64,000 nt of DNA from Chitinophaga pinensis (lineage in GTDB: Bacteria; Bacteroidota; Bacteroidia; SXHM01). A program made the position numbers and the translations under genes. Below the pieces are notes generated by a model. It was not told where the DNA came from, did no database searches, and was given only the letters and a program-made list of their open reading frames with translations. Of the stretch, positions 304 through 57,567 are shown one piece after another. The stretch is taken from the NCBI GenBank assembly GCA_945889235.1, contig CAMDBK010000001.1:5485-69484 (forward strand). Reading direction: 5' to 3'. Position 1 is the stretch's first letter. The number at the start of each line of letters is the position of its first letter.

Positions 304-391
304 GTCATTGCGAGCGTTAGCGAAGCAATCTCAAATTTGAAGTAGATTGCTTCGGTCTCCCGATAGCTATCGGGACCTCCCTCGCAATGAC
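304..391. repeat. Nested palindromic intergenic element, type B. Outer inverted repeat GTCATTGCGAG/CTCGCAATGAC, inner hairpin CGAAGCAATCT/AGATTGCTTCG, plus embedded 18-bp palindrome TCCCGATAGCTATCGGGA at 358-375.
   Basis: Read directly from the sequence. Fills almost the whole LemA/DUF3137 intergenic gap. A second copy lies at 13950-14021. Confidence 0.7.
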
Positions 392-400
392 GAACCGCAA

Positions 401-1351
401 ATGAAACCCTTTGAACAAATTTTTTCCGAACTTCTTCCTCAACTGGAAGAGTTGGAATTAGCACGTCAACAACAATATAAAAGCGCTAAAAAATGGCTTA
501 ACATAACCATTGTAATCGCTGTTGCAACTGTTGTTGTTTTATTGTTTGTAAGGCATCCGGCTGTAATTATTGTTGGAGGAATTCTTGCTGCCGCTTCTTA
601 TTTTGGCGGCTATTTTTCTGCAGCCCGAAAATATAAGAGTGAATTTAAAGACAAGGTTTTTACAAAAATTCTGCAGGCTGTAAACCCGGGTTTGGCTTAC
701 AATAAGTCAGGATATATTTCAAAGGAAAATTTTTATGAAAGTAAAATTTTTACTGAACGGGCTGACCGTTATTCAGGTGAAGATTATATCAGTGGAATGG
801 TGGATAAAACGCAGATTGAATTCTCGGAATTGCATACACAGGAAAGACGTGTAACCAGCAACGGAAAAACTACAACAGTGCATTACGTTACCTTTTTCAA
901 AGGTCTTTTTATGATTGCCGATTTTCATAAAAACTTTCATGGACACACCATTGTTTTGCCTGATACAGCAGAAAAGCTGTTCGGCTTTCTTGGTAAAAAA
1001 TTACAGAACTGGAATTTTACCCGTGATGAGGTGGTGCACATGGAAAATGCTGAATTTGAAAAAGTATTCGTGGTCTACAGCAACGATCAGGTGGAAGCAC
1101 GTTACATTCTAAGTACTTCCATGATTGAGCGTATTCTTGACCTGAAGAAAAAATACAACACCAACGTTTATTTGTCTTTTATAAATTCAAAAGTTTTTGT
1201 TGCGCTGCAAAACAATAAAAATCTTTTTGAACCTGCCTTTAAAGAAAGCATTACCAATTCGGATTATATCCGAACATTTTACAATGAACTTGGCGCTTGC
1301 CTGAGTATTGTAGATGATTTAAATCTAAACACACGCATCTGGTCGAAATAA
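401..1351 (+). CDS. LemA-associated membrane protein (DUF3137-like), two N-terminal TM helices
   Basis: ORF 347-1351 trimmed to the ATG at 401 (MKPFEQIF), after the repeat. Sits immediately downstream of LemA, as DUF3137 proteins usually do. Two hydrophobic helices follow the N-terminus. Confidence 0.45.
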   Translation: MKPFEQIFSELLPQLEELELARQQQYKSAKKWLNITIVIAVATVVVLLFVRHPAVIIVGGILAAASYFGGYFSAARKYKSEFKDKVFTKILQAVNPGLAYNKSGYISKENFYESKIFTERADRYSGEDYISGMVDKTQIEFSELHTQERRVTSNGKTTTVHYVTFFKGLFMIADFHKNFHGHTIVLPDTAEKLFGFLGKKLQNWNFTRDEVVHMENAEFEKVFVVYSNDQVEARYILSTSMIERILDLKKKYNTNVYLSFINSKVFVALQNNKNLFEPAFKESITNSDYIRTFYNELGACLSIVDDLNLNTRIWSK

Positions 1352-1460
1352 TATTACCCTGAGCTATAAGAACACATGACAACTGTCATGTATTTTTTTG
1401 TTTAATGTGTTGTAAAATGGTTTAATTTCGTTGTATAAATCTAAAAACAAGGAGGTTACT

Positions 1461-3194
1461 ATGAAAAATATTTCCCTGACACTTTTGATTTTTAGCGCAT
1501 TTTTCTTGCCTACATTTTCTCAAACTCCATATTGGAAATGGGCAAAACACACAGGCGGAATCGGCTATGATGAAGCGGGCGCATTATTGATGAACAATGA
1601 CAGCAATCTTATTGTTACCGGTTTTTTTCAGGGAACAGGATGGTTTCCATCTGATACATTAACAGCTGGAGGTTCTTTTGCTATGTTTATTGCTGAATAT
1701 ACCCGCTCGGGTGAAATGCTATGGGTTAAACACGTAGCTGATGCAAGCGGGGGAATTGAACCGCACCAGATTTTCCAGGATGCTTCAGGCAATTACTATA
1801 TCACAGGAACTTTCGGAGCCTATTCATGGGGCGGGGCGGTAACTTTTTTCCCTGCAACTGCTTTTACTTCTTTAGGCAACAAGGATATTTTTATCGCAAA
1901 GTTTAATCCGGCTGGCACACTGCTTTGGGCACAGGCAATTCAAAGCACAGAAGAGCCTAATACTACTTTTGTTGCTGACATGGATACCAACGGAAAAATG
2001 TGGATTGCAGGAAGAATGTTTGACCGCACTATTTTCACAAATCCTGTAAATGACACCCTTTATGAAGATTCGAAATATCATATTTTCCTTAGCTGTTATA
2101 ATGCTTCGGGCTTGCTTACTGCAAACTCAAAAGTTATTACTAACAATTCCGCAACCGACCCGCAGGGAATAGAAGCAGGAGTTAATGATGATGTTTTTCT
2201 GGCGGGATATTATTACAACCGTCAACTGTTCGGAATTGAGCCCGATACGTTTTCAATTCCGGGGCCGGGATTTTATCCTGATATTTTTACAGCTAAATTT
2301 TCTGCTGGTGGAGTTCATCCCGAATGGGCCGTGGGCTCAGGCGGAGAGTTCAGCAGTGATATGGTTACATCGCTGGACCGCACAACAGAAGGCAAACTTA
2401 TTTTAACCGGTGAATACACACTTGGTCCTGTTGCAATTAATTCCACCACACCAGCCCCTATTTCACTTACCACATCATCGGCCATCGAAATTTTTATTGC
2501 GCAGTATGATACACTTGGAATAGCTCATTGGGCAAAAAATGCAGGACACAGCTCAACCAGCAGTGGCATTGTTGTCAATGATGCCTGCATAGGAAACGAC
2601 AACAAAATTTACCTCACCGGAAACTATACCGGCACAGCTACATTCGGTGAAAGCCCATCCGTGATAAACATATCAGATATGGACGAATTATTTGTTGCAG
2701 AATATGCAGCAGACGGAGCAATTCAGTGGGCACAACATGGCGGAAGCGGTTATGGCGAAAATAGTTACTCGGTTGCAAACGATGATTATGGTTTTGCATA
2801 CATCGCAGGAACATTTACCTCTGCTGCAGTTTTCGACAGCACATCAACTCTTGACATAACACTTTATTCTTACGGATATTCCGACATTCTTGTGGCAAAA
2901 GTAGGAGCAGGCGATGACGGAACGGTGGGTGACAAGGAATTAAAAATGGACAATGGACAATGGCTCATTTATCCCAACCCCGCTAATAATAAGTTTCATA
3001 TTCAGTCAAAGGTAAGCAGTCATAAGTGCACAGTAACACTAATTAATTCGTTCGGGCAGGTGGTTTTCAAAATATCAAGCATTGATAATCAAAAAACAGA
3101 CATTGATGTTTCGGCACTTTGTTCAGGCATTTACAGCGTTTTTATTCAGGACGGAAACAATTATTTCACTTCAAAAATTGTTATCAGTCATTGA
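1461..3194 (+). CDS. Secreted SBBP/beta-propeller-repeat protein with T9SS C-terminal sorting domain
   Basis: Signal peptide MKNISLTLLIFSAFFLPTFSQ. Repeated D.xGN.Y(I/L)TG motifs (DASGNYYITGTF, NDNKIYLTGNYTG, DDYGFAYIAGTFT). C-terminus IYPNPANNKFHIQ...GIYSVFIQDGNNYFTSKIVISH is typical of a T9SS sorting domain. Confidence 0.55.
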   Translation: MKNISLTLLIFSAFFLPTFSQTPYWKWAKHTGGIGYDEAGALLMNNDSNLIVTGFFQGTGWFPSDTLTAGGSFAMFIAEYTRSGEMLWVKHVADASGGIEPHQIFQDASGNYYITGTFGAYSWGGAVTFFPATAFTSLGNKDIFIAKFNPAGTLLWAQAIQSTEEPNTTFVADMDTNGKMWIAGRMFDRTIFTNPVNDTLYEDSKYHIFLSCYNASGLLTANSKVITNNSATDPQGIEAGVNDDVFLAGYYYNRQLFGIEPDTFSIPGPGFYPDIFTAKFSAGGVHPEWAVGSGGEFSSDMVTSLDRTTEGKLILTGEYTLGPVAINSTTPAPISLTTSSAIEIFIAQYDTLGIAHWAKNAGHSSTSSGIVVNDACIGNDNKIYLTGNYTGTATFGESPSVINISDMDELFVAEYAADGAIQWAQHGGSGYGENSYSVANDDYGFAYIAGTFTSAAVFDSTSTLDITLYSYGYSDILVAKVGAGDDGTVGDKELKMDNGQWLIYPNPANNKFHIQSKVSSHKCTVTLINSFGQVVFKISSIDNQKTDIDVSALCSGIYSVFIQDGNNYFTSKIVISH

Positions 3195-4286: not shown

Positions 4287-4946
4287 ATGAAAACAGTATC
4301 TATTAGCGGTTCACCAAGAGTGAACGTAGGGAAGAAAGATGCAAAAGCTTCGCGCAGAAGTGGTCTTATCCCCTGTGTAATTTATGGCGGAAAAGAGCAA
4401 ATCCACTTTGTGGCTGATGAAAAAGAGTTCAAAAAACTCGTTTACACACCTGAAGTTTTTAAAGCCGATATTAAAGTAGGTGACAACCAGTATTCTGCTA
4501 TCATGCAGGAAATTCAGTTCCACCCCATCAATGATAAAATTATTCATATTGATTTCCGTGAACTTGATCCAGTAAAATACATTACAGTTGATGTTCCAGT
4601 AAAAATTACAGGAAGCGCATCAGGTGTTAAGGACGGAGGTTCACTGGTTCAGAATTACAGAACTTTAAAAATCAGTGCTCTGCCCAAGGATTTTCTTGAA
4701 AATGTGACTATTGATGTTACCGCTCTGAAGATAAACGAAGGAGTTAAAGTGAACAGCCTGGAGTTTCCCGGAGTTAAGTTCTTAGACAACCCTGCAAGTG
4801 AAGTAGTAGGCGTGAAACACAAACGCGGAGCGCTTGAAGAAGCAACCCCTGCTGCAGCGGCAGCGGCAGCAACACCGGCAGCAGCGGCTCCAGCAGCAGC
4901 AGCTCCAGCCAAGGCAGCAGCACCGGCTAAAGACGCTAAGAAATAG
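4287..4946 (+). CDS. rplY: 50S ribosomal protein L25 / general stress protein Ctc
   Basis: N-terminal MKTVSISGSPRVNVGKKDAKASRRSGLIPCVIYGG is the L25 signature. Ala/Pro-rich C-terminal tail. Lies between prs and pth. Confidence 0.85.
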   Translation: MKTVSISGSPRVNVGKKDAKASRRSGLIPCVIYGGKEQIHFVADEKEFKKLVYTPEVFKADIKVGDNQYSAIMQEIQFHPINDKIIHIDFRELDPVKYITVDVPVKITGSASGVKDGGSLVQNYRTLKISALPKDFLENVTIDVTALKINEGVKVNSLEFPGVKFLDNPASEVVGVKHKRGALEEATPAAAAAAATPAAAAPAAAAPAKAAAPAKDAKK

Positions 4947-4953
4947 TTTGATA

Positions 4954-5018
4954 GTTCAAAGTTTAAAAGTTCAAAGTTTCAGGTTATCCTCAAACTTTGA
5001 ACTTTTAAACTTTTAAAC
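4954..5018. terminator. AT-rich hairpin (~22-bp near-perfect stem, 12-nt loop) between rplY and pth
   Basis: Left arm GTTCAAAGTTTAAAAGTTCAAAGTTT, loop CAGGTTATCCTC, right arm AAACTTTGAACTTTTAAACTTTTAAAC. Starts 8 bp after the rplY stop and ends 14 bp before the pth ATG. Confidence 0.4.
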
Positions 5019-5031
5019 ATTGAACACATCA

Positions 5032-5595
5032 ATGAAATACTTAATAGCAGGTCTTGGTAATATCGGAAGCGAGTATGCCGAGACCCGCCATAACATAGGT
5101 TTTAAAGTAGTGGATGCCCTTGCAAAGGCGTCCACTACTGTTTTTAAGCCCGACCGTTTGGCCGATGTGTGTGAAGTAAAACACAAAGGCCGCACGTTTA
5201 TTCTTATAAAGCCCACCACGTATATGAATCTGAGTGGTAAAGCCATTAAATATTGGCTTACAGCTGAAAAAATTTCTATCCGGAACCTATTAGTGGTCAC
5301 CGATGACCTTGCGCTCCCTTGTGGCGAACTTCGGCTGAGAGCCAAAGGCAGCGATGGCGGACACAACGGCTTAAAAAGCATACAATTTGAACTGAATACA
5401 AATGAATATCCACGCCTGCGCTTTGGTGTGGGAAATGATTTTGCCAAAGGCAGACAAGTAGATTATGTCTTGGGCGAATGGACGACTGAAGAAAAGCCCA
5501 TCATCAATGAAAGCATTCTTAAATCAGTGGAACTGATCAAAGATTTTGGTTCTATGGATATTGCTTTTGTGATGAATAAGTTCAATAAGAAGTAA
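5032..5595 (+). CDS. pth: Peptidyl-tRNA hydrolase
   Basis: MKYLIAGLGNIGSEYAETRHNIGF is the Pth signature. ATG at 5032 preferred over the TTG at 5020. Confidence 0.85.
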   Translation: MKYLIAGLGNIGSEYAETRHNIGFKVVDALAKASTTVFKPDRLADVCEVKHKGRTFILIKPTTYMNLSGKAIKYWLTAEKISIRNLLVVTDDLALPCGELRLRAKGSDGGHNGLKSIQFELNTNEYPRLRFGVGNDFAKGRQVDYVLGEWTTEEKPIINESILKSVELIKDFGSMDIAFVMNKFNKK

Positions 5596-9165: not shown

Positions 9166-10641
9166 ATGAAAAAAATAATAAATAAAAAAACTCTTTCTCT
9201 GGGCAATTCTAAATGGGCTTACGCGCCTTCACCTGAAAGCACTTCGCATATCAATCTGAAGAAGCAATACGAACTTTTTATTGATGGCAAGTTTGTAAAG
9301 CCTTCATCCGGAAAATATTTTGACACTATCAATCCGGCTACTGAAGAAAAGCTTTCTTCCATTGCTGATGCGGATGAAAAAGATGTGGACAAAGCAGTGA
9401 AAGCAGCGCGCAAAGCGTACGATAAGACATGGAGCAAGCTGCCGGCAAAAGAACGCGGAAAATATATTTACCGCATTGCGCGTTTGTTGCAGGAGCGTGC
9501 TCGTGAGTTCAGTGTTATAGAAACAATGGATGGCGGAAAATCCATTCGCGAATCACGTGACATTGATATTCCGCTGGCAGCAAATCATTTCTTTTATTAT
9601 GCAGGTTGGGCTGATAAATTAGAATACGCTTTTCCGAATCGTAAGCCGCAAGCACTGGGTGTTGCAGGACAAATTATTCCCTGGAATTTTCCATTGCTGA
9701 TGGCAGCGTGGAAAATTGCCCCAGCTTTGGCAACGGGCAATACCGTTGTTTTAAAGCCCGCGGAAACCACCTCGCTCACTGCTTTAAAACTTGCCGAACT
9801 TATTGCCGATAGCGGTTTGCCCGATGGCGTGGTGAACATTGTTACAGGCGCTGGGCGCACCGGAGCAGCAATTGTGAATCATCCCGATATCGATAAAATT
9901 GCGTTCACAGGTTCTACCGATGTGGGTAAACTAATTCAGAAAGCAATTGCCGGAACCAGGAAAAAAGCAACGCTGGAGTTGGGCGGCAAAGCCGCCAACA
10001 TTATTTTTGAAGATGCTCCGATTGACCAGGCGGTGGAGGGAATTGTGAACGGAATATTTTTTAATCAGGGGCATGTGTGTTGTGCCGGTTCGCGCCTGTT
10101 TGTGCAGGAAGGCGTTGCTGATGTGGTTATCCGCAAACTGAAAGACAGATTGGAAACGTTGATTGTTGGCAACCCACTTGATAAGAACACCGATATAGGT
10201 GCTATTAATTCAAAACAACAACTTGCCACCATCAACAAATACATTGAGATTGGTAAAAACGAAGGCGCTGATTTTTACCAGAGCAAGTGCAGCGTTCCGA
10301 GTAAAGGATATTTCTGCAGACCAACATTATTTTTGAATGCATCACAAAGTCACCGTGTGGTGCAGGAAGAAATTTTTGGTCCGGTTTTAACTGTGCAGAC
10401 TTTCAGAACTGTTGAAGAAGTAATTGAAAAAGCCAACAATATTCCTTATGGTTTGTCGGCTGGCGTGTGGACGGATAAGGGTTCTAAAATTTTTAACATG
10501 ACCAATAAATTGCGTGCAGGGGTTATTTGGGCAAACACTTATAATAAGTTTGACCCTACATCACCTTTCGGGGGATATAAAGAAAGCGGGTTTGGTCGCG
10601 AGGGCGGGTTGCATGGGTTAATGCCCTATCTTAAATTTTAA
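9166..10641 (+). CDS. NAD(P)-dependent aldehyde dehydrogenase
   Basis: ELGGKAANIIFEDA and FFNQGHVCCAGSRLFV (catalytic Cys) motifs. Start moved to the ATG at 9166 (MKKIINKK) after the hairpin. Confidence 0.85.
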   Translation: MKKIINKKTLSLGNSKWAYAPSPESTSHINLKKQYELFIDGKFVKPSSGKYFDTINPATEEKLSSIADADEKDVDKAVKAARKAYDKTWSKLPAKERGKYIYRIARLLQERAREFSVIETMDGGKSIRESRDIDIPLAANHFFYYAGWADKLEYAFPNRKPQALGVAGQIIPWNFPLLMAAWKIAPALATGNTVVLKPAETTSLTALKLAELIADSGLPDGVVNIVTGAGRTGAAIVNHPDIDKIAFTGSTDVGKLIQKAIAGTRKKATLELGGKAANIIFEDAPIDQAVEGIVNGIFFNQGHVCCAGSRLFVQEGVADVVIRKLKDRLETLIVGNPLDKNTDIGAINSKQQLATINKYIEIGKNEGADFYQSKCSVPSKGYFCRPTLFLNASQSHRVVQEEIFGPVLTVQTFRTVEEVIEKANNIPYGLSAGVWTDKGSKIFNMTNKLRAGVIWANTYNKFDPTSPFGGYKESGFGREGGLHGLMPYLKF

Positions 10642-13943: not shown

Positions 13944-13949
13944 GGAAGC

Positions 13950-14021
13950 GTCATTGCGAGGGTTTTTCACCCGAAGCAATCTCACCTCATAAGGAGATTG
14001 CTTCGCTACGCTCGCAATGAC
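13950..14021. repeat. Nested palindromic intergenic element, type B (copy 2)
   Basis: Outer GTCATTGCGAG/CTCGCAATGAC, inner CGAAGCAATCTC/GAGATTGCTTCG. Lies between the convergent stops of sod and the 14030 gene. Confidence 0.7.
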
Positions 14022-14029
14022 GTTGCTCA

Positions 14030-18819: not shown

Positions 18820-18925
18820 CGGATGACGGGGATGGCACACGGATGACACGGATTTAACTGATTGGCGCGGATTTTAAAATCTGTATTTATCCGCCCAATC
18901 CGTGTCATCCGTGTGCCATTCCTTC
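18820..18925. promoter_or_regulatory. ~100-bp near-perfect palindrome with 10-bp-phased GGATG repeats in the divergent region between the zinc-ribbon gene and ssb
   Basis: ATGGCACACGGATGACACGGATT (18832-18854) matches its reverse complement at 18897-18919 (23/23). Inner ATTGGCGCGGAT/ATCCGCCCAAT and a central GATTTTAAAATC palindrome. Confidence 0.5.
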
Positions 18926-19443: not shown

Positions 19444-19486
19444 CCGTCCTGAGATCTCGATAGCTATCGAGACGGGGCGGTTTTTT
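19444..19486. terminator. Hairpin containing the 18-bp palindrome TCTCGATAGCTATCGAGA, followed by a T-run, downstream of ssb
   Basis: CCGTC..TCTCGATAGCTATCGAGA..GACGG GGCGG TTTTTT. A variant of the palindromic core found in three other repeat copies. Confidence 0.55.
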
Positions 19487-21019: not shown

Positions 21020-21490
21020 TTATTTTGAGCACTCTTCCCGCTTTGCAGCTTCATACCCTTCATCAACTAATAAACCTCTGCTGTTGGAAGCGGCAACCGC
21101 AAGTTCATCACAGCGCTCATTCAACGGATTATCTGCATGGCCTTTTACCCATTTGAATTTTATGTGGTGTTTGGGATATATTAACAGGAAACGTTTCCAC
21201 AGGTCAACATTCTTTTTGTCTTTAAAATTTTTTTTCACCCATCCAAATACCCAGCCCTTGTCCACCGAGTCAACTACATATTTAGAATCGGAATAAATGG
21301 TAACCGCACTGCCGGGAACTTTAATCATCTCCAACGCAACTATAACGCTGAGCAGTTCCATACGGTTATTGGTAGTCAGTCTGTAGCCCTGCGAAACTTC
21401 TTTGCGGTGATGGTCTTTCAAAAGCACAATGCCGTAACCGCCCGGTCCGGGGTTTCCAAGTGCAGAGCCATCGGTGTAGATTGTTATCAT
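21020..21490 (-). CDS. rnhA: Ribonuclease HI
   Basis: MITIYTDGSALGNPGPGGYG...TNNRMELLSVIVALE...IYSDSKYV motifs. Start at the internal ATG. Confidence 0.85.
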   Translation of the reverse strand: MITIYTDGSALGNPGPGGYGIVLLKDHHRKEVSQGYRLTTNNRMELLSVIVALEMIKVPGSAVTIYSDSKYVVDSVDKGWVFGWVKKNFKDKKNVDLWKRFLLIYPKHHIKFKWVKGHADNPLNERCDELAVAASNSRGLLVDEGYEAAKREECSK

Positions 21491-21551
21491 TTTTAAGCCA
21501 AGTAGGCAAACAGGAATTAGCCACAAAGTAAACACCTATTTGCCTATTTGC

Positions 21552-22355
21552 CTAATTGGCTATTTGGCTGTCTTCCTGCTTGCCTAACTCCTGTTTGCCT
21601 ACTTGCCTAAAAAAGACATCCTCCCTCAATATCACTTCTTCCTGCAATTTATAAACTCTTTCTTTCAGTGCGGGAATATCTTTTTCAGTCATGCCTGTGG
21701 TGTCAATCGGTTTAAGAAAACGCACGCTAACAGTTCCGGGTGTAACCAGCCAAGTATCCATAGGCATTAATGTGCGGCAGTGTAGTACAATCATAGGAAG
21801 CAAAGGTGTTTGTGTTTCTATTGCAATGCGGAAAGCTCCGTCATGAAATTCTTTCAGCGGCTTGCCTGTTCGGTTGCGTGTACCTTCAGGCATAATAAGA
21901 ATGGAAGTGCCCTCGCGCAGGGTTTTTATCATAAGGTCTAAACTCTTTTTACGGCTTTCGGGACTACTGCGGTCAACAAACAGACAGGCAACTTTAAACA
22001 GATAACCTATCAAGGGAATTTTTCCGGTCTCCACTTTTGCCAGTGTTTTATAAGCCATTTTTATTGACGAGCCGCAGGCAAATAAATCCAGCGTTGATGA
22101 GTGTGTACCCGAAACAACATAGGCGCGATTGCTGTCAATATTCTCGTACCCGGTAAAATCCTGTTTCATAAAACTAAGCGCAAACCATATATCACTCCAG
22201 AAACGGTAATACCGCATCAGCGGTTTTATATAATTTTTTCCACCGGCAATAATTATGAGCGGAGTAATAAATAAACTGACTGCAACAAACAGAAAAAAAA
22301 TCAGATAACTCCAAACAGAGTAGATGGGTTGAATGATTTTGAAAAGTATTTTCAT
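21552..22355 (-). CDS. 1-acyl-sn-glycerol-3-phosphate (lysophospholipid) acyltransferase
   Basis: H(X4)D motif GTHSSTLD and IMPEGTR motif. N-terminal TM helix. ATG at 22353-22355 preferred over the GTG at 22370. Confidence 0.65.
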   Translation of the reverse strand: MKILFKIIQPIYSVWSYLIFFLFVAVSLFITPLIIIAGGKNYIKPLMRYYRFWSDIWFALSFMKQDFTGYENIDSNRAYVVSGTHSSTLDLFACGSSIKMAYKTLAKVETGKIPLIGYLFKVACLFVDRSSPESRKKSLDLMIKTLREGTSILIMPEGTRNRTGKPLKEFHDGAFRIAIETQTPLLPMIVLHCRTLMPMDTWLVTPGTVSVRFLKPIDTTGMTEKDIPALKERVYKLQEEVILREDVFFRQVGKQELGKQEDSQIAN

Positions 22356-22365: not shown

Positions 22366-22449
22366 ACCACAGATTGACACAGATTCTCACAGATTGCAAC
22401 AGCCGATTATAAACTATTAATCTGTGTTCAATCTGTGTAAATCTGTGGT
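22366..22449. promoter_or_regulatory. Mirrored array: three 10-bp-phased CACAGATT repeats, a 23-bp spacer, then three AATCTGTG repeats
   Basis: CACAGATT at 22368, 22378 and 22388. AATCTGTG at 22419, 22430 and 22440. Lies between the RDD gene stop and the acyltransferase start. Confidence 0.5.
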
Positions 22450-22455
22450 AAAATT

Positions 22456-23236: not shown

Positions 23237-23986
23237 ATGAAATATTTTTTACTTCTTGCATCTTGTCTCTTATTTCTTGCTTCTGATTTATCAGCACAAG
23301 TAATCGGTGGTGAATTAGTTAAACTCGAAGAGCTTTTTACAAAAGGCAAATTTGAAGATTGCGCCTACAAAGCTGAAACTTTTACTGAAAACGAAAAATA
23401 CCGTAAAAGCCCTGAGCCGTACCTCTACATCAGTATGTGTTATTACGAATTTCATTTTTCAACGGATACAAAAATAAAAGAGTATTATAAATCTGCGTTG
23501 AAGGATGCATTGAAGTATGCCGTAAAAATGCGCACCTACGACAAGGAAGCAAATTTCTATAAAGACAATAGTGAGTATTTAGATAAGCTCCGCCAGACTT
23601 GTCTTGAAGAAGCAAAGGCGCTGGTTGACAAAAAAGATTACAGCAAAGCATCATCGTATTACTACAAACAATTGGTAAAGCTTGACCCCGATGATGCCGA
23701 ACTGCTTTTTGTAAAAGGCGTTTGCGATGCGCTGATGCGCAACAGCAGTGAAGCTTACAAAAGCATAAACGATGCAATGCCCCTGCTGAATAAAAAAGTA
23801 GAAGCCGGAAATTACAGAGCACCTAAAATGATTGAGCCGGCTTTAGCTGATGCATTTGTAAATTATTCAACCTTACTGAAAGACCAAAGCTATGCCGACT
23901 CAGCAAAAGCAATTATTATGTTCGGAAAAATTCTGCTGCCAATGGATAAAGCAGTTGATGAACAATATAAAAAGTTCGGGAACTAA
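23237..23986 (+). CDS. Secreted all-helical (TPR-like) hypothetical protein
   Basis: Signal peptide MKYFLLLASCLLFLASDLSAQ. Start trimmed from 23096. Confidence 0.4.
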   Translation: MKYFLLLASCLLFLASDLSAQVIGGELVKLEELFTKGKFEDCAYKAETFTENEKYRKSPEPYLYISMCYYEFHFSTDTKIKEYYKSALKDALKYAVKMRTYDKEANFYKDNSEYLDKLRQTCLEEAKALVDKKDYSKASSYYYKQLVKLDPDDAELLFVKGVCDALMRNSSEAYKSINDAMPLLNKKVEAGNYRAPKMIEPALADAFVNYSTLLKDQSYADSAKAIIMFGKILLPMDKAVDEQYKKFGN

Positions 23987-23992
23987 ACGTTG

Positions 23993-24068
23993 CGTCACCC
24001 TGTCCCGATAGCTATCGGGATATTTCAGGGTCTCATTAGAAAGATGCTGAACCAAGTTCAGCATGACG
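23993..24068. repeat. Two-hairpin palindromic element, type A, with the 18-bp core TCCCGATAGCTATCGGGA nested in the loop of hairpin 1
   Basis: CGTCACCCTG[TCCCGATAGCTATCGGGA]TATTTCAGGGTC...GATGCTGAACCAAGTTCAGCATGACG. Lies between convergent stops (7 bp and 8 bp away). Confidence 0.75.
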
Positions 24069-24076
24069 GTTTCTCA

Positions 24077-25165
24077 CTAAACGAATTTTTCTCCTTTCGA
24101 AATCTTCACATCATTGACGATAACTTTTATTTGCTGCTCTTCCGTTTTGCGGCAAACCAACAGTATTCCGTCTGATTCTACTACGATGAAATCTTCCAGT
24201 CCCTGCAATACAACCAGCTTGTCTTTGGGAACATTTACTATGCAGTTCTTAGTATCGTAAACCACTACATTTTTTCCGATGATGGAATTTCCATCTTTAT
24301 TTTTACTGGCGTACTCATAAAGCGAACCCCAGGTTCCAAGGTCGCTCCAGCCAATATCTGCTGACAGAACATAAACGTTTTTTGCTTTTTCCATTACCGC
24401 ATAGTCAATGGAAATATTCTTGCAAACGGTATATGCTTTTTTAATAAATGCTTCTTCCTGTAGCGTTCCGTAAACCATTTTGCCTTCGCCAAAAACCTGG
24501 AATATATCACTGGCATTATCGCGGAAAGCGCTGAGAATACTTTTTGCCGACCAAATAAAAATTCCGGAGTTCCAGAGAAAATCGCCACTGGAAAGAAATT
24601 GTTTTGCCATGTCAAGGTCAGGCTTTTCAGTAAACGTTTTTACTTTTTGTACTTCACCGCTGCCGTTTAAAAATTCTTTTTCATTGAACTGAATGTAACC
24701 GTAACCGGTATCAGGGCGCGAAGGTTTTATTCCCAACGTAATTAGCACATCGTGTTTTGCAGTTTCTGAAAGTGCTTTATTAATTACGGTTGCAAATGCC
24801 TGTGCATTCAGAATAAGATGGTCTGATGGCGCCACCACCATATTGGCATCCGGATTTTTTGCGCTAAGGCGGAACGCTGCATACGCAACGCAGGGCGCTG
24901 TGTTTTTTCTGCTGGGCTCACAAATAATTTGTTCGTTACTCAGAGCAGGCAGTTGTTCCTTTACTAATTCGCGGTAGCTTTCATTGGTTACCACATAAAT
25001 ATTTTCGGGAGGACAAACCGGAAGAAAGCGTTCGTAGGTTTGTTGTATCAGTGTTTTCCCGGTGCCCAACACATCAATAAATTGTTTGGGATGCGGTGAG
25101 CGGCTCATGGGCCAGAACCTTGTTCCTACCCCGCCCGCCATAATTACAACATAATTATTTTTCAT
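24077..25165 (-). CDS. Mannose-1-phosphate guanylyltransferase (GDP-mannose pyrophosphorylase)
   Basis: MKNNYVVIMAGGVGTRFWPMSRSPHPKQF is the nucleotidyltransferase signature. 362 aa. Confidence 0.8.
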   Translation of the reverse strand: MKNNYVVIMAGGVGTRFWPMSRSPHPKQFIDVLGTGKTLIQQTYERFLPVCPPENIYVVTNESYRELVKEQLPALSNEQIICEPSRKNTAPCVAYAAFRLSAKNPDANMVVAPSDHLILNAQAFATVINKALSETAKHDVLITLGIKPSRPDTGYGYIQFNEKEFLNGSGEVQKVKTFTEKPDLDMAKQFLSSGDFLWNSGIFIWSAKSILSAFRDNASDIFQVFGEGKMVYGTLQEEAFIKKAYTVCKNISIDYAVMEKAKNVYVLSADIGWSDLGTWGSLYEYASKNKDGNSIIGKNVVVYDTKNCIVNVPKDKLVVLQGLEDFIVVESDGILLVCRKTEEQQIKVIVNDVKISKGEKFV

Positions 25166-25170
25166 TCTCT

Positions 25171-25248
25171 CGTCACCCTGAACTTGTTTCAGGGTCTTAT
25201 TAATAACATATCAGATTTTAGAGATGCTGAAACAAGTTCAGCATGACG
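25171..25248. repeat. Two-hairpin palindromic element, type A
   Basis: CGTCACCCTGAACTTGTTTCAGGGTC..GATGCTGAAACAAGTTCAGCATGACG. Lies 5 bp upstream of the ATG of the guanylyltransferase gene and 4 bp after the aminotransferase stop. Confidence 0.75.
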
Positions 25249-25252
25249 ATCT

Positions 25253-40658: not shown

Positions 40659-40919
40659 ATGACCATCTACGTAGGTAACCTTTCTTTCCAAATGAAAGAT
40701 GACGACCTGAAAAACACATTCTCTGAGTTTGGCAATGTAACATCTGCCAAAGTAATCAGCGACAAGTATTCAGGCCGCTCTAAAGGCTTCGGTTTTGTTG
40801 AAATGGATAACGATGCAGCAGGTAAAACTGCCATTGAAGCCCTCAACGGAAAAGAAGTTCAGGGACGCCCGCTTCGTGTAAACGAAGCCCGCCCCAAAGA
40901 AGACAACAGAGAAAGATAG
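40659..40919 (+). CDS. RRM-domain RNA-binding protein
   Basis: RNP2 IYVGNL and RNP1 KGFGFVEM motifs. 86 aa. Confidence 0.85.
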   Translation: MTIYVGNLSFQMKDDDLKNTFSEFGNVTSAKVISDKYSGRSKGFGFVEMDNDAAGKTAIEALNGKEVQGRPLRVNEARPKEDNRER

Positions 40920-40958: not shown

Positions 40959-40987
40959 CCTTCTCTGGAAACGGAGAGGGTTTTTTT
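40959..40987 (+). terminator. Rho-independent terminator after the RRM gene
   Basis: CCTTCTCTGG-AAA-CGGAGAGGG followed by TTTTTTT. Confidence 0.6.
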
Positions 40988-40999
40988 GTTAACAAGAAA

Positions 41000-41060
41000 C
41001 GTCACCCTGAATTTATTTCAGGGTCTCAATCATAGATGCTGAAACAAGTTCAGCATGACG
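41000..41060. repeat. Two-hairpin palindromic element, type A
   Basis: CGTCACCCTGAATTTATTTCAGGGTC..GATGCTGAAACAAGTTCAGCATGACG. Lies between convergent gene ends. Confidence 0.75.
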
Positions 41061-42796: not shown

Positions 42797-45700
42797 TCAC
42801 TCCACCACAACCTTCCTCACCACCACCTCATCACCCGCACGGACTTTAAAGAGGTAAAGCCCTTTGGAAAAACCTTCAAGATTTAGTTTCTCGGTAAAAT
42901 ATTTTGTGGTGCCTGCGCGGTTGAAATAAACACGCTGACCAAGTGTGTTAGTTAATTCCATTTCCAGTGCAACAGGTTTCTCTGTTTCAAAAGTTATAGT
43001 AAACACTCCTGTATTCGGGTTGGGATAAATTATCATTTGTCCATTATCACTTGTCAATTCATTAAAGCCTACCCCAAACTCAACTACAATAATAGTCTGG
43101 CTTACCGCGGTGGTGCAGTTATAATTAATGGAGGTTTGGGTAATGGTATAAATTCCAGTTTCGGTATAAGCGTGTATAGGATTTACAGCTGTTTCTACCA
43201 TGCTGCCATCACCAAAATCCCAGAACCATTGCTCGGCATTTACCGAAGTATTAGTAGCCACAACTGTTCCCAAACCTGAAAGTACAACGGTATCGGTATT
43301 CAATGTAAAGCCTGCCACTACGCCCAGCGAAGCACAGTTCCATTGCACATCAATAATATGTACGGCAGTATCGGAACAGGTGGCGTTGGCTGCAATCAGA
43401 AATACTGGATGCGTTCCAACTTCAGTGTACGTATAAACAGGACTTTGAATAAAAACATTGGGGCTTCCGTCACCAAAATTCCAGTTCCATGTAATGGGAA
43501 CGGGAGCAGTAAGGTCGGTAAAACTTACAGGGGTATTTATTTGTATAGTATTAGGCGAACTGAATTGTGCGTTAATGGTGGGCAATACAGTTATGGTCAT
43601 AGCATCGGTAGCCTGACAACCATATTGGTCGGTCATTAATACAGAATAGTTTCCTGCCTGCAACGTCTGTAAAGTTTGTTCTGCTTCTCCGCTGAGGTGA
43701 ATATTGTTCCAGTACCATTCATAACTGTCTGCACCGGGGTTACCGGCATTCAGTTCGGGATAACTTTCGTTGGTACACATTACTAAATCAAAACCTAAAT
43801 TAACGGAAGGGTCGCTTACGGTCAGGTTCATGGTATCAGCACCCATGCAGCCCTCTGCCGAAGTAATGGTAATGCCATAATCGCCCGGCAAAATGGTTTG
43901 CAGAAACTGTGAATTTTGTCCGATAGGATTTCCGTTAAAGTTCCATGCATAGGTTGAGGCGTTGGGTAATCCTGCATCAAGTACCGGGAAGTTTCCGTTG
44001 ATACAAACTGCATCATCGCCTCCTATATCTACCGGAAGAACAATGAACACATCTAAATTAATTCCGTCAGAACCTGAGCAGCCGCTTCCGTAATCAACCG
44101 TAACAGTATAATCACCCGGACCAACCGCCTGAACAATTTGAGTGTTGTCGGTAATTGTGCTGCCGTCTAATGTCCATGAATAGGTTGCGCCAATGTTTCC
44201 TCCGGCATTCAGGAAAGGCATATCCTGCAAATAACAGATAGAAGTATCGGGGCCTAAATCAACAACAACGGCATCCAGCACATGAATGGTGTCGGTAGTT
44301 TTTGAAGTTCCGCAGCAGCTTGTTGTTACCAGTTCAACTACATAATCGCCTGCAGTTGCAAACGAAACCGTTCCGGGATTTTGTGATGATGATGAGGTAA
44401 TGGAACCTCCGGGAATTGTCCAGTCATAAGTCATGGCCGTGGAAGAAGCAGTAAGGTCGGTGCTTTGTCCGGCACAGAAAGTTGTTTTGGTAGCAACAAT
44501 TGCGGGAGGTGTAAAATCAACCGTGATGTCAACAAAGTTGGCGTAGAAAAAAGGAACGCCATCTACAATTAAAGAAATGTTTCTGAAGCCCAGCGGTCCG
44601 CTGTATTCAACGGTATCGTTGTTGGCTTCACTTCCGGGAGGTGTTGCACCGTAACCGAAAATCCAGTTAATAATTCCGGTGGTATCGGTTTGAACAACTA
44701 CCGTTGAGTTGGTGCAGCCATAATACTCCACACGAATTTCGGGTTCAAAAGGATTGTAATTATAAGGACGCAAAACCTGTGAGGGGCTTCCGTATTCATA
44801 AAAAGCGCGGCTCATGCCGTCAGAACCTTTTCCGCCTTCACCGCCTTGTCCGCCTTGTCCGCCATTACCACCATCACCACCTTCACCGTTATTGCAACTA
44901 TGATCGGGACCAAAATCACCAAGATTTCCACCTTGTCCGCCTAAGCCACCTTGTCCGCCAATACCGCCTGCACCGCCTGCACCACCTTGTCCGCCTGTAC
45001 CGGGAACGAGGTAACAATCCTGCACAATTCCGTTAATTCCATTATTGAAAACAAAGACACAAAATGAACCACCGCCACCGCTTCCGCCTAAACCACCTCC
45101 ACCTTTTTCACCACCTTCGCCACCGCCACCGCCACCGCCACCGCTGCCTGAAGTAAAATAAGCAGTATCACCGGGATAAGGAATTGGGCCGGGTGTTGGA
45201 ATGTAGGGTTGTAATGCGGCCGGCTCACAACCTTTGGCGCCACCTCCACCACCTCCACCACCACCTGCTCCGTTGGTAAGTCCGGGATCACCCTGCTCAC
45301 CATCACCGGGAACATAATATCCACCGGCAAAAGTTGCAGTTCCCTGTAAACCGTTAAAACCTTCCAATCCATCTGAGCCATCTGAGCCCTGCACACCGTG
45401 ATTAAGCCCTTGAGCAAGACAATTTGTATTTGCATAGGTAACTTCACATAAACCTTGTCCACCTTGTCCGCCTTGTCCGGGAGCATAGCCCTGTCCATTT
45501 GTTCCGGGATGACCGGGGTTGGTGGTTTCGCTTCCGGGGGTAACTATCCATTGACAAAAGCCAAGCAGACATTGTTCCATTACTTCAAATCCGCCCTGGT
45601 CGCCACCGTTACCGGCATCGCCACCAGCATTGCTTCCGGGAAAAGAACCCGAACCACCGATACCACCGGCCTTGCAGCAATTCCCAACACTTTCACCTGA

Positions 45701-46270
45701 TTCACCTCCTGTACCGTCACCACCATCTACGCCTGTTATACCTGCATCACCGGGTAATCCGGGTGAGCCATCGCCCACTGTAACATGGCAACGTGAAACG
45801 GTGTATTCAGTACATCCTGAAATATAAATTCCGTAAACGGTAACGCTATTTCCCGTTGCATCAGCCACTTCCAGTCTTAAATCCATTAAGCGGAAATTGC
45901 TGAGGTTAAAACAATTTATGCCGATAAGAGCCGGAGGTGTAGTAAGCTGATTAGAATTATCACGAATAATTTTCGTGATGTTGACATTACTTTTTATCCA
46001 TGTGGTTACATCAAAGCCGCCTTCGATGGTGAGGTTGCTCTGCATCTGCAAGGTTTGTGAAATGGGGTAATTGCCTTCCGCCATTCTTATTTTTTTGTTG
46101 GCAGGACTAACAAGTGTTAAGCCGAAATCGAGTGAAGCGGGGTTGGCTTTTGTGCCCGTAGTTCCGCTGCTGGCACCATTTGGAGAAACATAAATAACGC
46201 CACATTCCTGCGCAAAAAGAAAAAATGATTGTGTGGAAAGAAGAAGGAGAAGTAGTAAGCTACGCAACAT
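42797..46270 (-). CDS. Giant T9SS-secreted adhesin-like protein: N-terminal beta-helix-like region, collagen-like Gly-triplet tracts, three Ig-like repeats, two PKD domains and a T9SS sorting domain
   Basis: WNFGDGS PKD motifs. GSPGLPGDAGITGVDGGDGTGGESGES and GGQGGAGGAGGIGGQGG.. tracts. C-terminus MIIYPNPNTGVFTITF...LYLFKVRAGDEVVVRKVVVE. Confidence 0.6.
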   Translation of the reverse strand: MLRSLLLLLLLSTQSFFLFAQECGVIYVSPNGASSGTTGTKANPASLDFGLTLVSPANKKIRMAEGNYPISQTLQMQSNLTIEGGFDVTTWIKSNVNITKIIRDNSNQLTTPPALIGINCFNLSNFRLMDLRLEVADATGNSVTVYGIYISGCTEYTVSRCHVTVGDGSPGLPGDAGITGVDGGDGTGGESGESVGNCCKAGGIGGSGSFPGSNAGGDAGNGGDQGGFEVMEQCLLGFCQWIVTPGSETTNPGHPGTNGQGYAPGQGGQGGQGLCEVTYANTNCLAQGLNHGVQGSDGSDGLEGFNGLQGTATFAGGYYVPGDGEQGDPGLTNGAGGGGGGGGGAKGCEPAALQPYIPTPGPIPYPGDTAYFTSGSGGGGGGGGEGGEKGGGGLGGSGGGGSFCVFVFNNGINGIVQDCYLVPGTGGQGGAGGAGGIGGQGGLGGQGGNLGDFGPDHSCNNGEGGDGGNGGQGGQGGEGGKGSDGMSRAFYEYGSPSQVLRPYNYNPFEPEIRVEYYGCTNSTVVVQTDTTGIINWIFGYGATPPGSEANNDTVEYSGPLGFRNISLIVDGVPFFYANFVDITVDFTPPAIVATKTTFCAGQSTDLTASSTAMTYDWTIPGGSITSSSSQNPGTVSFATAGDYVVELVTTSCCGTSKTTDTIHVLDAVVVDLGPDTSICYLQDMPFLNAGGNIGATYSWTLDGSTITDNTQIVQAVGPGDYTVTVDYGSGCSGSDGINLDVFIVLPVDIGGDDAVCINGNFPVLDAGLPNASTYAWNFNGNPIGQNSQFLQTILPGDYGITITSAEGCMGADTMNLTVSDPSVNLGFDLVMCTNESYPELNAGNPGADSYEWYWNNIHLSGEAEQTLQTLQAGNYSVLMTDQYGCQATDAMTITVLPTINAQFSSPNTIQINTPVSFTDLTAPVPITWNWNFGDGSPNVFIQSPVYTYTEVGTHPVFLIAANATCSDTAVHIIDVQWNCASLGVVAGFTLNTDTVVLSGLGTVVATNTSVNAEQWFWDFGDGSMVETAVNPIHAYTETGIYTITQTSINYNCTTAVSQTIIVVEFGVGFNELTSDNGQMIIYPNPNTGVFTITFETEKPVALEMELTNTLGQRVYFNRAGTTKYFTEKLNLEGFSKGLYLFKVRAGDEVVVRKVVVE

Positions 46271-47687: not shown

Positions 47688-47749
47688 CGTCACCCTGAAC
47701 TTGTTTCAGGGTCTTTAGAATAAGATGCTGAAACAAGTTCAGCATGACG
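47688..47749. repeat. Two-hairpin palindromic element, type A, whose terminal GCATGACG supplies the ATG of the downstream acylase gene
   Basis: CGTCACCCTGAACTTGTTTCAGGGTC..GATGCTGAAACAAGTTCAGCATGACG. The ORF start at 47744 lies inside the element. Confidence 0.75.
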
Positions 47750-52356: not shown

Positions 52357-52425
52357 CGTCATGTTGAACTTGTTTCAGCATCTCACACTTTAACAACAAG
52401 ACCCTGAAACGAGTTCAGGGTGACG
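52357..52425. repeat. Two-hairpin palindromic element, type A (inverted orientation)
   Basis: CGTCATGTTGAACTTGTTTCAGCATC..GACCCTGAAACGAGTTCAGGGTGACG. Lies between convergent stops. Confidence 0.7.
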
Positions 52426-53820: not shown

Positions 53821-53877
53821 ACTTATTGTTTTGGGTTTTAAATTTATAATTGGAATTAGATTTCTATTTTATTTTTC

Positions 53878-56376: not shown

Positions 56377-56383
56377 ATTGTTT

Positions 56384-57466
56384 TTACACCGCCACTCCTA
56401 CCAGCATCATATCATCCAGCTGGCGGGCTGATTTTTTCCAGTTATCAATTTCAACTGAAAAGGCTTTTTCCTGTTCGGCTGAGGGTTTGGTATAATTAGC
56501 TGCCATGTTTTTGCGCAGGCGGGTAAGTCCGAACTTTTCATCATTGGCATTAAACTGGTCGGTTATGCCATCGCTGAACATATAGATGCGGTCGCCTGTT
56601 TGGTAGGGAATAGTTTGTGTGGAGTACTTGAATCCGGGTTTGAAATGGAAGCCTCCAAGACTGAAAAAATCTGCTTTCACTTCTTTCATATCTCCGTTAG
56701 CACTTATATAACACAGTCCCATTCCGGCTCCTGAAAAGTCAATTGTTTTTTGTTTGGTATCAATGCGGCACAGTGCCATTTCCATTCCATCGTGCACTTC
56801 TGAATCGCGTTTCTGATTCAGTGTTTTCTGTATCTCTATGTGTATGGTGTCTAATATTTCGGCTGTGCCGGCATGTTTATTTTCGCTGGTTATTTTGTTG
56901 AGCAGACAGTACCCTATCAGTGACATAAATGCACCGGGAACTCCGTGCCCTGTACAATCCACCGCTGCTATATATATATATCCGTTTGATTTATGATACC
57001 ATAAAAAATCACCGCTTACCACATCACGCGGGCGGAACAAAAAGAAGGAACCGGGAAAATCGGTTTTCATTTGTTCGGCATTTGAAATCAATGCTAACTG
57101 TATGCGCTGCGCGTAATCTATACTCTGCGATATTTTTTCAAGTGATTTGCTTAGATCTTTTTGTGCTAGTGAAAGTTCACTGTTCTTTTCATGCAAATCA
57201 CGGGTGCGGTCCTGCACCTTCTGTTCAAGGTTTTGATTCATTTGCATTACCTCATCCTGTTTTATTCCGGCAAGCATGGCAAACAACCCCAGAAACAAGG
57301 GTGCGCTGTCAATAACCCAATGCAGGGGCTGTGTGTGTTGAACCTGTTTTATGCTGTCTATTGTAAAAGGGAGACCCTGAATAAGAACATCTAAAATACT
57401 TGAGATTACAGGAAAACAGAAGCCAAAAAGGGCTCCGTAAATAAAGTAGCGTGTTCTGTAATTCAT
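56384..57466 (-). CDS. Membrane-anchored PP2C/SpoIIE-family Ser/Thr phosphatase (SiaA/RsbU-like)
   Basis: Two N-terminal TM helices and a coiled-coil. PP2C motifs DCTGHGVPGAFMS, MFSDGITDQF and a C-terminal DD. Confidence 0.7.
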   Translation of the reverse strand: MNYRTRYFIYGALFGFCFPVISSILDVLIQGLPFTIDSIKQVQHTQPLHWVIDSAPLFLGLFAMLAGIKQDEVMQMNQNLEQKVQDRTRDLHEKNSELSLAQKDLSKSLEKISQSIDYAQRIQLALISNAEQMKTDFPGSFFLFRPRDVVSGDFLWYHKSNGYIYIAAVDCTGHGVPGAFMSLIGYCLLNKITSENKHAGTAEILDTIHIEIQKTLNQKRDSEVHDGMEMALCRIDTKQKTIDFSGAGMGLCYISANGDMKEVKADFFSLGGFHFKPGFKYSTQTIPYQTGDRIYMFSDGITDQFNANDEKFGLTRLRKNMAANYTKPSAEQEKAFSVEIDNWKKSARQLDDMMLVGVAV

Positions 57467-57476
57467 TGGTTCTAAT

Positions 57477-57567
57477 CGTCACCCTGAACTTGTTTCAGGG
57501 TCTTTTATTAATTAATAGGTTTGTGAGATGCTGAAACAATCCCGATAACTATCGGGACAGCATGACG
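57477..57567. repeat. Two-hairpin palindromic element, type A, with core variant TCCCGATAACTATCGGGA nested in the loop of hairpin 2
   Basis: CGTCACCCTGAACTTGTTTCAGGGTC..GATGCTGAAACAA[TCCCGATAACTATCGGGA]CAGCATGACG. Lies between the DUF1987 gene stop and the PP2C gene start. Confidence 0.75.

Follow-up and report, generated by a model that had tools for sequence, protein, structure and literature searches.

Intergenic palindromic dimers of a freshwater Bacteroidia contig as probable CGTC-tagged REP elements

Results

Palindromic elements at gene ends

The stretch analysed here, 64,000 nt of contig CAMDBK010000001.1 (GenBank assembly GCA_945889235.1, listed as Chitinophaga pinensis; forward-strand positions 5,485 to 69,484), is referred to below as the window. 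Its genes encode housekeeping enzymes, and the gaps between them hold nine palindromic elements, comprising six dimers of one type (A), two of another (B) and one terminator-like hairpin; the dimers are, in our view, probable members of the CGTC-tagged repetitive extragenic palindromic (REP) superfamily. An initial annotation had proposed a modular family of intergenic palindromic repeats of the REP or bacterial interspersed mosaic element (BIME) type, and this description stands, as all nine elements exist within 1 nt of the coordinates then given and far beyond chance in shuffle controls. The nearest species representatives are metagenome-assembled genomes (MAGs) of uncultured freshwater Bacteroidia, with 89–91% amino acid identity in the nucleoside triphosphate (NTP)-transferase gene, about 82% nucleotide identity and synteny across 11–37 kb of the window.

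The type A arm pattern, CGTCAYSCTGAANNNNNTTCAGSRTC, was matched with at most one mismatch by 10 arms in the window, compared with 0.00 expected from 100 dinucleotide shuffles. Two more arms (23993–24032 and 57527–57567) are broken up by an 18-nt palindrome, TCCCGATAGCTATCGGGA, giving six dimers whose coordinates agree exactly with the initial annotation. Left arms read CGTCA-CC-CTGAACTTGTTTCAG-GG-TC, right arms are the reverse complement of CGTCA-TG-CTGAACTTGTTTCAG-CA-TC, and a variable spacer of 9–26 nt separates the two, such that every dimer (6/6) joins one CC..GG arm to one TG..CA arm. Each arm comprises an 8-bp stem, a 5-nt loop and a 3-nt tail reading C-T-N. The stem opens with an A-T pair, followed by T-A in the TG arms or C-G in the CC arms.

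Dimer A1 (23993–24068, plus strand) consists of a CC arm (23993–24032) in which the palindrome at 24003–24020 replaces the loop, a spacer (24033–24042) and a TG arm (24043–24068), and lies between convergent stop codons 6 nt and 8 nt away. A2 (25171–25248, plus strand; CC arm 25171–25196, spacer 25197–25222, TG arm 25223–25248) is flanked by two minus-strand genes, with a stop codon 4 nt and the next start codon 5 nt away. In A3 (41000–41060, plus strand; CC arm 41000–41025, spacer 41026–41034, TG arm 41035–41060) the CC arm carries the loop variant TTTAT, and the stop codon of a minus-strand gene is 5 nt off. A3 also adjoins a separate hairpin and T-run terminator at about 40960–40990; a small unlisted open reading frame (ORF) at 40659–40919, which encodes an RNA-binding protein of the RNA-recognition motif (RRM) type (MTIYVGNLSF...), has its own hairpin and T-run terminator immediately ahead of A3.

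A4 (47688–47749, plus strand; CC arm 47688–47713, spacer 47714–47723, TG arm 47724–47749) starts 25 nt past a stop codon. Its right arm contains the ATG at 47744–47746 (GCATGACG) that opens a penicillin-amidase ORF, and this REP arm may therefore supply the start codon; the first 20 residues of that ORF resemble a signal peptide. A5 (52357–52425) lies in reverse orientation on the minus strand, with its TG arm (52357–52382) preceding the spacer (52383–52399) and CC arm (52400–52425); the TG arm has one stem mismatch, and convergent stop codons are found at 16 nt and 6 nt. In A6 (57477–57567, plus strand; CC arm 57477–57502, spacer 57503–57526, TG arm 57527–57567) the loop bases GTT of the TG arm are swapped for the 18-nt palindrome at 57540–57557 (one mismatch), and the dimer sits between a stop codon 3 nt upstream and a start codon 10 nt downstream.

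The two type B dimers were also correctly recognized by the initial annotation, but their ends were not: the true boundaries, 303–392 and 13949–14022, are one base wider on each side, so that type B, too, begins with CGTCA and finishes with TGACG. The type B motif CGTCATTGCGAG occurs four times in the window, where 0.15 copies are expected, and the arm has a 5-bp basal stem (ATTGC/GCAAT), an internal loop and a small apex module. The left arm of B1 (303–332, plus strand) reads CGTCATTGCGAG-CGTTAG-CGAAGCAATCTC, and is followed by a central loop (333–343) and a right arm (344–392) in which the 18-nt palindrome at 358–375 stands in for the apex; the upstream stop codon (298) lies 4 nt before the dimer and the next ATG (401) 8 nt after it. 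B2 (plus strand) comprises a left arm (13949–13983) with the apex GGGTttttcACCC, a loop (13984–13993) and a right arm (13994–14022) whose apex, GCGTAGC, corresponds to a GNA-triloop mini-hairpin, and lies between convergent stop codons 5 nt and 7 nt off. Thus GCGTAGC, GGGTttttcACCC and the 18-nt palindrome each form the apex of one type B arm.

The ninth element, at 19444–19484 (plus strand), is not a CGTC REP. The initial annotation had described it as the palindromic core occurring alone at 19455; instead, positions 19455–19472 are a symmetric, compensatory variant with two substitutions, TCTCGATAGCTATCGAGA, which tips a terminator-like hairpin followed by a T-run.

Common plan, folding and gene context

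Types A and B share a plan of CGTC tag, basal stem starting from A-T, variable apex and short tail. Arms of about 26–35 nt are arranged as inverted pairs with the tags outside (HH) in 8/8 window dimers, CGTC stands at the start of 16/16 arms, and no other 4-nt sequence flanks perfect hairpins of the window as often (9 occurrences, the next commonest having 5). All nine elements fold strongly on both strands, with minimum free energies (MFEs) of −17 to −45 kcal/mol and z-scores of −4.4 to −10.4. Type A had been interpreted as two small hairpins, but the MFE fold of plain type A dimers is a single long hairpin with a 2×2 internal loop at the CC/CA positions; since the arms are inverted but not identical along their stems, each can fold alone while the whole forms a long mismatched hairpin. 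The bases 3′ of the TGACG ends of type A (GTTTCTC, ATCTTTA, GACGGTC, AACCGCA, GGTTGCC and AAACTAT) are without a U-run.

The window copies are isolated dimers outside ORFs, of which four lie in convergent gaps, four in tandem gaps and none in divergent gaps. Most copies were initially placed near convergent stop codons, whereas only five of the nine elements are convergent, and B1, A2, A4 and A6 lie between genes of the same direction. A stop codon is found 3–8 nt from 7/8 dimers, and those in tandem gaps end 5–10 nt before the next start codon, or, for A4, include it in the right arm. For the three tandem type A cases, the CC-to-TG orientation relative to transcription was inconsistent. When window gaps of 25–350 nt were surveyed, strong structure (z ≤ −3) was found in 5/6 convergent, 7/22 tandem and 0/11 divergent gaps. 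CGTC dimers account for 8 of these 12 strongly structured gaps, and the other four contain the 19444–19484 hairpin and three hairpins of other repeat families.

Several long intergenic hairpins in the window are built from other short units: AAAGTTYAAA at 4946–5025, CACGGATGACACGGAT at 18829–18922, GCCAAGTA/GGCAAATA at 21490–21614, and CACAGATT at 22371–22455. These belong to other repeat families, which swap with CGTC dimers and with each other in the corresponding slots of relatives.

Arms and dimers in other genomes and collections

Near-identical arms were found in contigs of 29–72% GC from several phyla. A viral-contig scan that allowed 16 combinations at two stem pairs recovered the type A arm pattern in 83 stretches (GC 0.33–0.71), and 119 of 121 arms carry one of three compensated combinations (TG/CA in 55, CC/GG in 35 and TC/GA in 29), leaving only two uncompensated. 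The commonest tail of these arms is CCA, which occurs in the high-GC contigs bearing them; the window and low-GC contigs have C-T-N instead. The type B arm was present in at least 120 viral-contig stretches (GC 0.30–0.72), and the canonical form among the matches listed is CGTCATTGCGAG-CGNAGC-GAAGCAATC-CAG, with all four bases seen at N, so that its apex, GCGNAGC, can be read as a GNA-triloop mini-hairpin. According to Hirao and colleagues, the DNA d(GCGAAGC) reportedly forms an unusually stable hairpin. A metagenome scan with the low-GC tail version of type A likewise returned at least 120 stretches; the consensus is therefore abundant in these collections, and not confined to the handful of copies that would have counted against the initial annotation. 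An arm resembling dRS3, CGTCATTCCCGCGCAGGCGGGAATC, is also present in viral-contig loci.

Among the metagenome matches listed are 261 arms, which form 71 HH, 16 TT and 12 HT dimers and 84 singletons. Heterodimers make up 65/71 of the HH dimers, and the six homodimers compare with 18.9 expected from arm frequencies (P about 5e-5), while CC+TG dimers are over-represented, with 27 observed vs 13.4 expected. A plasmid BLAST search with dimer A4 identified matches in Sphingobium, Novosphingobium, Sphingomonas, Treponema and Tenacibaculum. A similar dimer is present in Tenacibaculum, and plasmid pNL2 of N. aromaticivorans carries CGTCACCCTGAACCTGTTTCAGGGTCCA...TGGATGCTGAAACATGTTCAGCATGACG, the identical CC+TG HH dimer with CCA tails, between two same-strand short-chain dehydrogenase/reductase (SDR) genes.

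The tag and the stem were assessed separately. In 2.8 Mb of unrelated loci, with the stem unconstrained, at least 7/8 positions were paired in 18/117 occurrences of CGTC+N8+CTYGD+N8, compared with 0/274 for three control tags. Across 81 distinct arms, double changes were seen in all 8 stem pairs, giving 129 compensatory cells; the resulting covariation score was reached by 0/500 shuffles and no slid register came close. Because the arms were selected for at least 6/8 pairing, out of a distribution with two clear modes, the percentage paired is inflated, whereas the compensation is not. As the initial annotation had suggested from the differences between the two arms, these compensatory changes demonstrate that the arm hairpin is under structural constraint, and the CGTC foot and loop are the only conserved parts of the arm.

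Some metagenome loci contain arrays. Whole HH heterodimers are repeated in tandem in L344 (2712–2971, with a 91-nt period), L418 (3456–3933) and L430 (2871–3043); these clusters recall BIMEs, whereas the dimers of the window are isolated. In L346, L377, L399, L414, L430 and L447, 5′ half-arms (CGTCAYSCTGAAC plus about 8 nt) form tandem arrays, mostly of 21-nt period, directly upstream of a complete arm. These half-arm arrays could be slippage products or phased binding sites, and we found no mention of them in the available text of the paper that defined the CGTC-tagged superfamily (PMC3733652).

In loci L001–L083 (IMG/VR, mostly of high GC), ORFs recurring beside CGTC arms resemble, from their translations, the capsid, portal and terminase of phages or gene transfer agents (GTAs). 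Given these neighbours, the viral-contig matches appear to reflect REP-rich host DNA rather than phage-borne repeats. Clustering of arm-adjacent ORFs in viral contigs, used to search for a linked enzyme, returned recurrent GTA/phage genes only, a sampling artefact of the collection, and the five metagenome-locus ORFs flanked on both sides by arms are mutually unrelated. A motif scan of the window and of about 4.4 Mb of fetched loci detected no transposase or HUH-Y1 ORF.

None of the nine elements matched an Rfam family at the gathering score, and nothing relevant appeared at E ≤ 1; the sub-threshold matches, an miRNA precursor on A2 and an Enterococcus small RNA on A1, were both far below gathering. 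Literature searches by raw sequence strings returned primers only, and the sole later publication retrieved on CGTC REPs and transposases was a 2018 survey of HUH enzymes.

Turnover and conservation of gene-end slots

Orthologous slots were compared in seven relatives (L135, L136, L137, L138, L139, L140 and L201). At 25166–25252, the slot of A2 in the window, L135 and L136 have type A and L138 has a type B dimer. GTAG-tagged REPs occupy it in L137 (a dimer) and L140 (a single 'double-foot' REP), L201 has CGCAGAG repeats there, and L139 has a hybrid dimer of a palindrome-capped TG arm and a TGTC-tagged arm of another type. The A1 slot at 23987–24076 is empty in L201, where the stop codons overlap, and holds a type A dimer of opposite orientation with different junction bases in L140. 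In L135 and L136 it contains type A with a plain loop, which indicates that the palindrome in window A1 is derived. The 8-bp direct repeat ACTAAACG flanking A1 (23982–23989 and 24076–24083) is single-copy in the empty allele of L201. At 13944–14029, the B2 slot, plain bidirectional terminator hairpins are found in L136, L140 and L201, one with a core-like tip. Three different families, among them a type B dimer in L139 with an arm identical to a window B2 arm, are found in the slot near 21500; L138 has the CACGGAT type there and the window the GCCAAGTA type.

A2 and its L135 orthologue are identical at 73/78 positions (94%), including 22/26 in the spacer, whereas the 4-fold sites of the gene beside it are about 52% identical. 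Conservation of at least one copy therefore exceeds the neutral level.

The GTAG double-foot REPs of these relatives (GTAGAGAC...GTCTCTAC; L137 about 9930–9990, L140 9304–9335) are like those beside TnpA_REP subclass 2.4 genes (RsliA01 and ScanA01; EmolA01 is unclassified; PMC6006769 Table S1). None of the GTAGAGAC type was found in the window.

The 18-nt palindrome

The palindrome TCCCGATAGCTATCGGGA has four matches in the window at ≤2 mismatches (0 expected) and was found in 52 viral-contig stretches, all of low GC (0.27–0.51). It usually tips longer, unrelated hairpins, including T-run terminator-like stems, CCCCTC-type repeats, CGTC arms and nested copies of itself, and 4/6 of its two-mismatch variants are symmetric and complementary. 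In two window arms and one L139 arm at a different locus, it takes the place of the type A loop bases AAC or GTT, and the junction is the same each time. The apices of other metagenome copies bear different mini-palindromes, and apex replacement is thus a general property of the arms. No matching Rfam family, and no description in our literature search, was found for TCCCGATAGCTATCGGGA. In L087 (4837–4909) and L109 (3337–3409), it shares bases with the 5′ end of a tRNA-like sequence of 60 nt that scores 32.1 bits with the Rfam tRNA model, just above gathering, and in which ARAGORN found no tRNA; Rfam searches of TCCCGATAGCTATCGGGA-containing loci returned nothing besides this match.

Discussion

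Assignment to the CGTC-tagged REPs

The initial annotation could name no described family for these repeats. Types A and B correspond, however, to two sequence types of the CGTC-tagged REP superfamily defined by Di Nocera, De Gregorio & Rocco 2013 (PMC3733652). There, an unpaired CGTC (or TGTC/CCTC) tag stands at the 5′ foot of a hairpin with an 8–9 bp stem, A/T complementary at positions 1 and 2, a 4–5 nt loop and an unpaired 3-nt tail, mostly CCA. HH (tags-outside) dimers predominate, and in CGTC-2 and CGTC-3 these are mainly heterodimers. The units occupy gaps where ORFs converge or run in one direction, mostly at <20 bp from a 3′ end, with tens to thousands of copies per genome and no associated transposase. 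Five phyla are represented, including Bacteroidetes, for which Gramella forsetii is the one species listed; Novosphingobium aromaticivorans is given as a CGTC-2 host.

Type A fits the CGTC-2 pattern. Like the N. aromaticivorans CGTC-2 REPs, it has a CGTC tag, an 8-bp stem from A-T, a 5-nt loop and a 3-nt tail, forms HH heterodimers with variable spacers, is placed within 20 bp of 3′ ends where ORFs converge or share a direction, and adjoins no transposase. It thus shows every testable defining feature given in that account except the tail, which reads CTN here and in other low-GC contigs rather than the consensus CCA. Type B forms a second sequence type, and its arm (5-bp basal stem, internal loop, GNA-triloop apex) differs from the simple 8–9-bp stem published there. 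A further difference lies in the window apices formed by the 18-nt palindrome, which is absent from the paper's account. The host, an uncultured freshwater Bacteroidia lineage, is also distinct, and the CGTC REPs are hereby extended to it.

On this evidence, we think it probable that types A and B are CGTC-tagged REPs in the form of non-autonomous HH heterodimers that fill gene-end slots and act as stem-loops in transcripts. They represent a known element class in a new host, not a new kind of element; what is new here is the host lineage, the evidence on slot turnover and conservation, the GNA-triloop reading of type B and the palindromic apex module.

Proposed mechanism

By analogy with GTAG REPs and TnpA_REP, the dimers would be non-autonomous, and a trans-acting factor would copy each as a unit into gene-end slots on recognizing the CGTC foot and hairpin in single-stranded DNA. 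Once installed, the element would be transcribed with the upstream gene, and its −25 to −45 kcal/mol stem-loop, at a 3′ end or between cistrons, would attenuate read-through, block 3′ exonucleases, or both. A heterodimeric design would avoid a perfect long palindrome, the target of cellular deletion by SbcCD-type nucleases; PMC3733652 likewise proposes that heterodimers limit the removal of long hairpins.

Several observations weigh against this interpretation. Type B falls outside the published 8–9 bp stem and 4–5 nt loop, and fits the plan only loosely. As the motif scan of the window and fetched loci revealed no transposase, mobility is deduced solely from differences in presence and orientation. 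Mismatches within arms are G.T in 15 cases and A.C in 13, and this lack of a G.T excess gives no support to selection on one specific RNA strand. The dimers have no U-tract and so are not canonical intrinsic terminators, and complete termination is unlikely for four elements that lie 5–10 nt upstream of the next start codon or, as with A4, overlap it. Density, moreover, is known for 64 kb only, in which there are eight dimers, or about 1 per 8 kb.

Alternative explanations

The same observations could be accommodated if the dimers were true REPINs that owed their mobility to a Y1 (HUH) transposase of their own, encoded by one gene elsewhere in the genome and flanked by CGTC arms, that is, a REPIN–RAYT (REP-associated tyrosine transposase) system. 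The architecture of tag plus hairpin, inverted pair, spacer and long mismatched hairpin is the same; Bacteroidetes have TnpA_REP subclasses of their own, namely 2.4 and, with 'atypical' flanking structures that are not GTAG, 2.6, and close relatives carry GTAG double-foot REPs like those listed beside subclass 2.4 genes. We nevertheless regard such a system as unlikely, because the Y1 ORF is absent from the window and the loci scanned, the tag is CGTC rather than a GT[AG]G foot, and no CGTCA-like arm is among the REPs tabulated beside Bacteroidetes TnpA_REP genes, including subclass 2.6, in the 2018 HUH survey. Among the CGTC-positive genomes in which PMC3733652 looked at tyrosine transposase genes, none of these genes had flanking CGTC units.

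A second possibility is that these are host-owned, non-mobile 3′-end hairpins (terminators or stabilisers) whose likeness results from selection and gene conversion. Their terminator positions, the plain terminator hairpins in the same slot of relatives, the absence of copies from divergent gaps and the orthologous copy conserved well above the neutral level would all be expected of such hairpins. Near-identical 26-nt arms across 29–72% GC and several phyla would not, however, and nor would one slot that is empty in one relative and oppositely oriented in others, spacers that differ between copies rather than being homogenised, tandem arrays of dimers and half-arms, or the missing U-tract; this explanation is improbable.

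The repeats might instead serve mainly as double-stranded DNA (dsDNA) binding sites for nucleoid proteins, for gyrase or integration host factor (IHF)-like factors, as has been proposed for the BIMEs of E. coli, or for a recombinase. Neisseria dRS3, for example, is a prophage integration target. That element is CGTC-1 according to PMC3733652, and extreme sequence conservation across phyla, half-arms phased at 21 nt in some metagenome loci and the lack of G.T/A.C asymmetry would also be consistent with binding to duplex DNA. Stem positions, though, co-vary freely while pairing is kept, which is the signature of a folded single strand and not of a fixed recognition sequence, and makes a primary role of this kind quite improbable.

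Finally, an origin as miniature inverted-repeat transposable elements (MITEs), deletion derivatives of a DDE-type insertion sequence (IS) with 26-bp terminal inverted repeats that move by cut-and-paste with target-site duplication, is very improbable: inverted repeats of about 26 bp are present and ACTAAACG is duplicated around A1, the one site with a known empty allele, but distances of 3 nt and 7 nt separate its copies from the arm ends and both stop codons depend on 4 of its bases, the check for target-site duplications suggested in the initial annotation gave no regular duplication (the longest flanking direct repeats of 77 dimers equal those of a shuffled-flank control), singleton arms are common (84 among the metagenome matches listed) and each arm is self-complementary, and no IS bounded by CGTCAYSCTGAAC-type ends, of which the copies might have been parts, was seen, arm neighbours being housekeeping or GTA/phage structural genes.

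Comparison with other repeat systems

Like the window dimers, REPINs (Bertels & Rainey 2011, PMC3116915) consist of two inverted REPs and a spacer that form one long imperfect hairpin, are intergenic and are apparently propagated as dimers, a feature echoed here by the over-representation of CC+TG. They differ in having a GTAG tag and in being mobilised by RAYTs, whereas the window elements are tagged CGTC and no cognate RAYT was found here or is reported for CGTC REPs. PMC3733652 assigns Neisseria dRS3/NIME (Neisseria intergenic mosaic elements) and the Rickettsia palindromic elements (RPEs) RPE-4/RPE-6 to CGTC-1/CGTC-4. Their mosaic intergenic organisation resembles that of the window, although the stem sequences differ, the Neisseria elements are grouped in large clusters that flank RS units, and RPEs may lie inside genes.

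The BIMEs of E. coli (REP Y/Z) similarly consist of REP hairpins in alternating orientation, with linker modules, after genes, but they belong to the GTAG superfamily, have linkers with IHF or gyrase sites and a link to a RAYT (yafM), and show no sequence similarity to the window elements. They are said to stabilise mRNA or attenuate transcription, proposals associated with Newbury 1987, Espeli 2001 and Liang 2015. Correia elements and MITEs, too, are short, intergenic, bounded by terminal inverted repeats and often co-transcribed; Correia elements, however, duplicate a TA target and contain an IHF site, whereas the window elements have no regular duplication and each of their arms is a hairpin. 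Rho-independent terminators share the position of the dimers after stop codons, but have a U-tract, which among the window elements is found only in the 19444–19484 hairpin.

Membership among CRISPR, Correia or BIME repeats was ruled out on their defining features. Integron attC sites were also considered and rejected: CCTGAAC and GTTCAGC breach both cores (RYYYAAC...GTTRRRY), and single copies are scattered downstream of housekeeping genes.

Slot occupancy, the apex module and the copying of CGTC REPs

We found no comparative slot and conservation data in the available text of PMC3733652, and those presented here bear on function. A slot that stays occupied while the resident family changes, among relatives whose flanking genes are about 82% identical in nucleotides, and the conservation of A2 together speak for a benefit of the hairpin to the host even though the sequences behave as if mobile. 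The near-identity of arms across 29–72% GC, with no linked transposase, raises the question of what copies CGTC REPs, a question that is testable because the very same dimer is present in cultivable hosts (Novosphingobium, Tenacibaculum).

We regard TCCCGATAGCTATCGGGA as an apex module separate from the CGTC REPs. More tentatively, it may be a hairpin-apex module in its own right, belonging to low-GC and probably Bacteroidota genomes, that installs itself, or is selected, at the tips of unrelated hairpins, whether CGTC REP arms of types A and B, plain terminators or several further repeat families. In a wider sense, the gene-end slots of this lineage appear to stay hairpin-filled while families swap. 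If so, this would point to an undescribed hairpin-targeted copying mechanism or to a tip-binding protein.

Other features of the window

Repetition of other kinds was noted within window genes. An ORF of 1157 aa on the minus strand (42797–46270) contains Gly-rich GGX runs encoded by 9-nt repeats, and a small plus-strand ORF (60655–61122) includes four 42-nt repeats. Two adjacent plus-strand ORFs, at 39335 and 39779, have signal-peptide-coding starts that are 89% identical.

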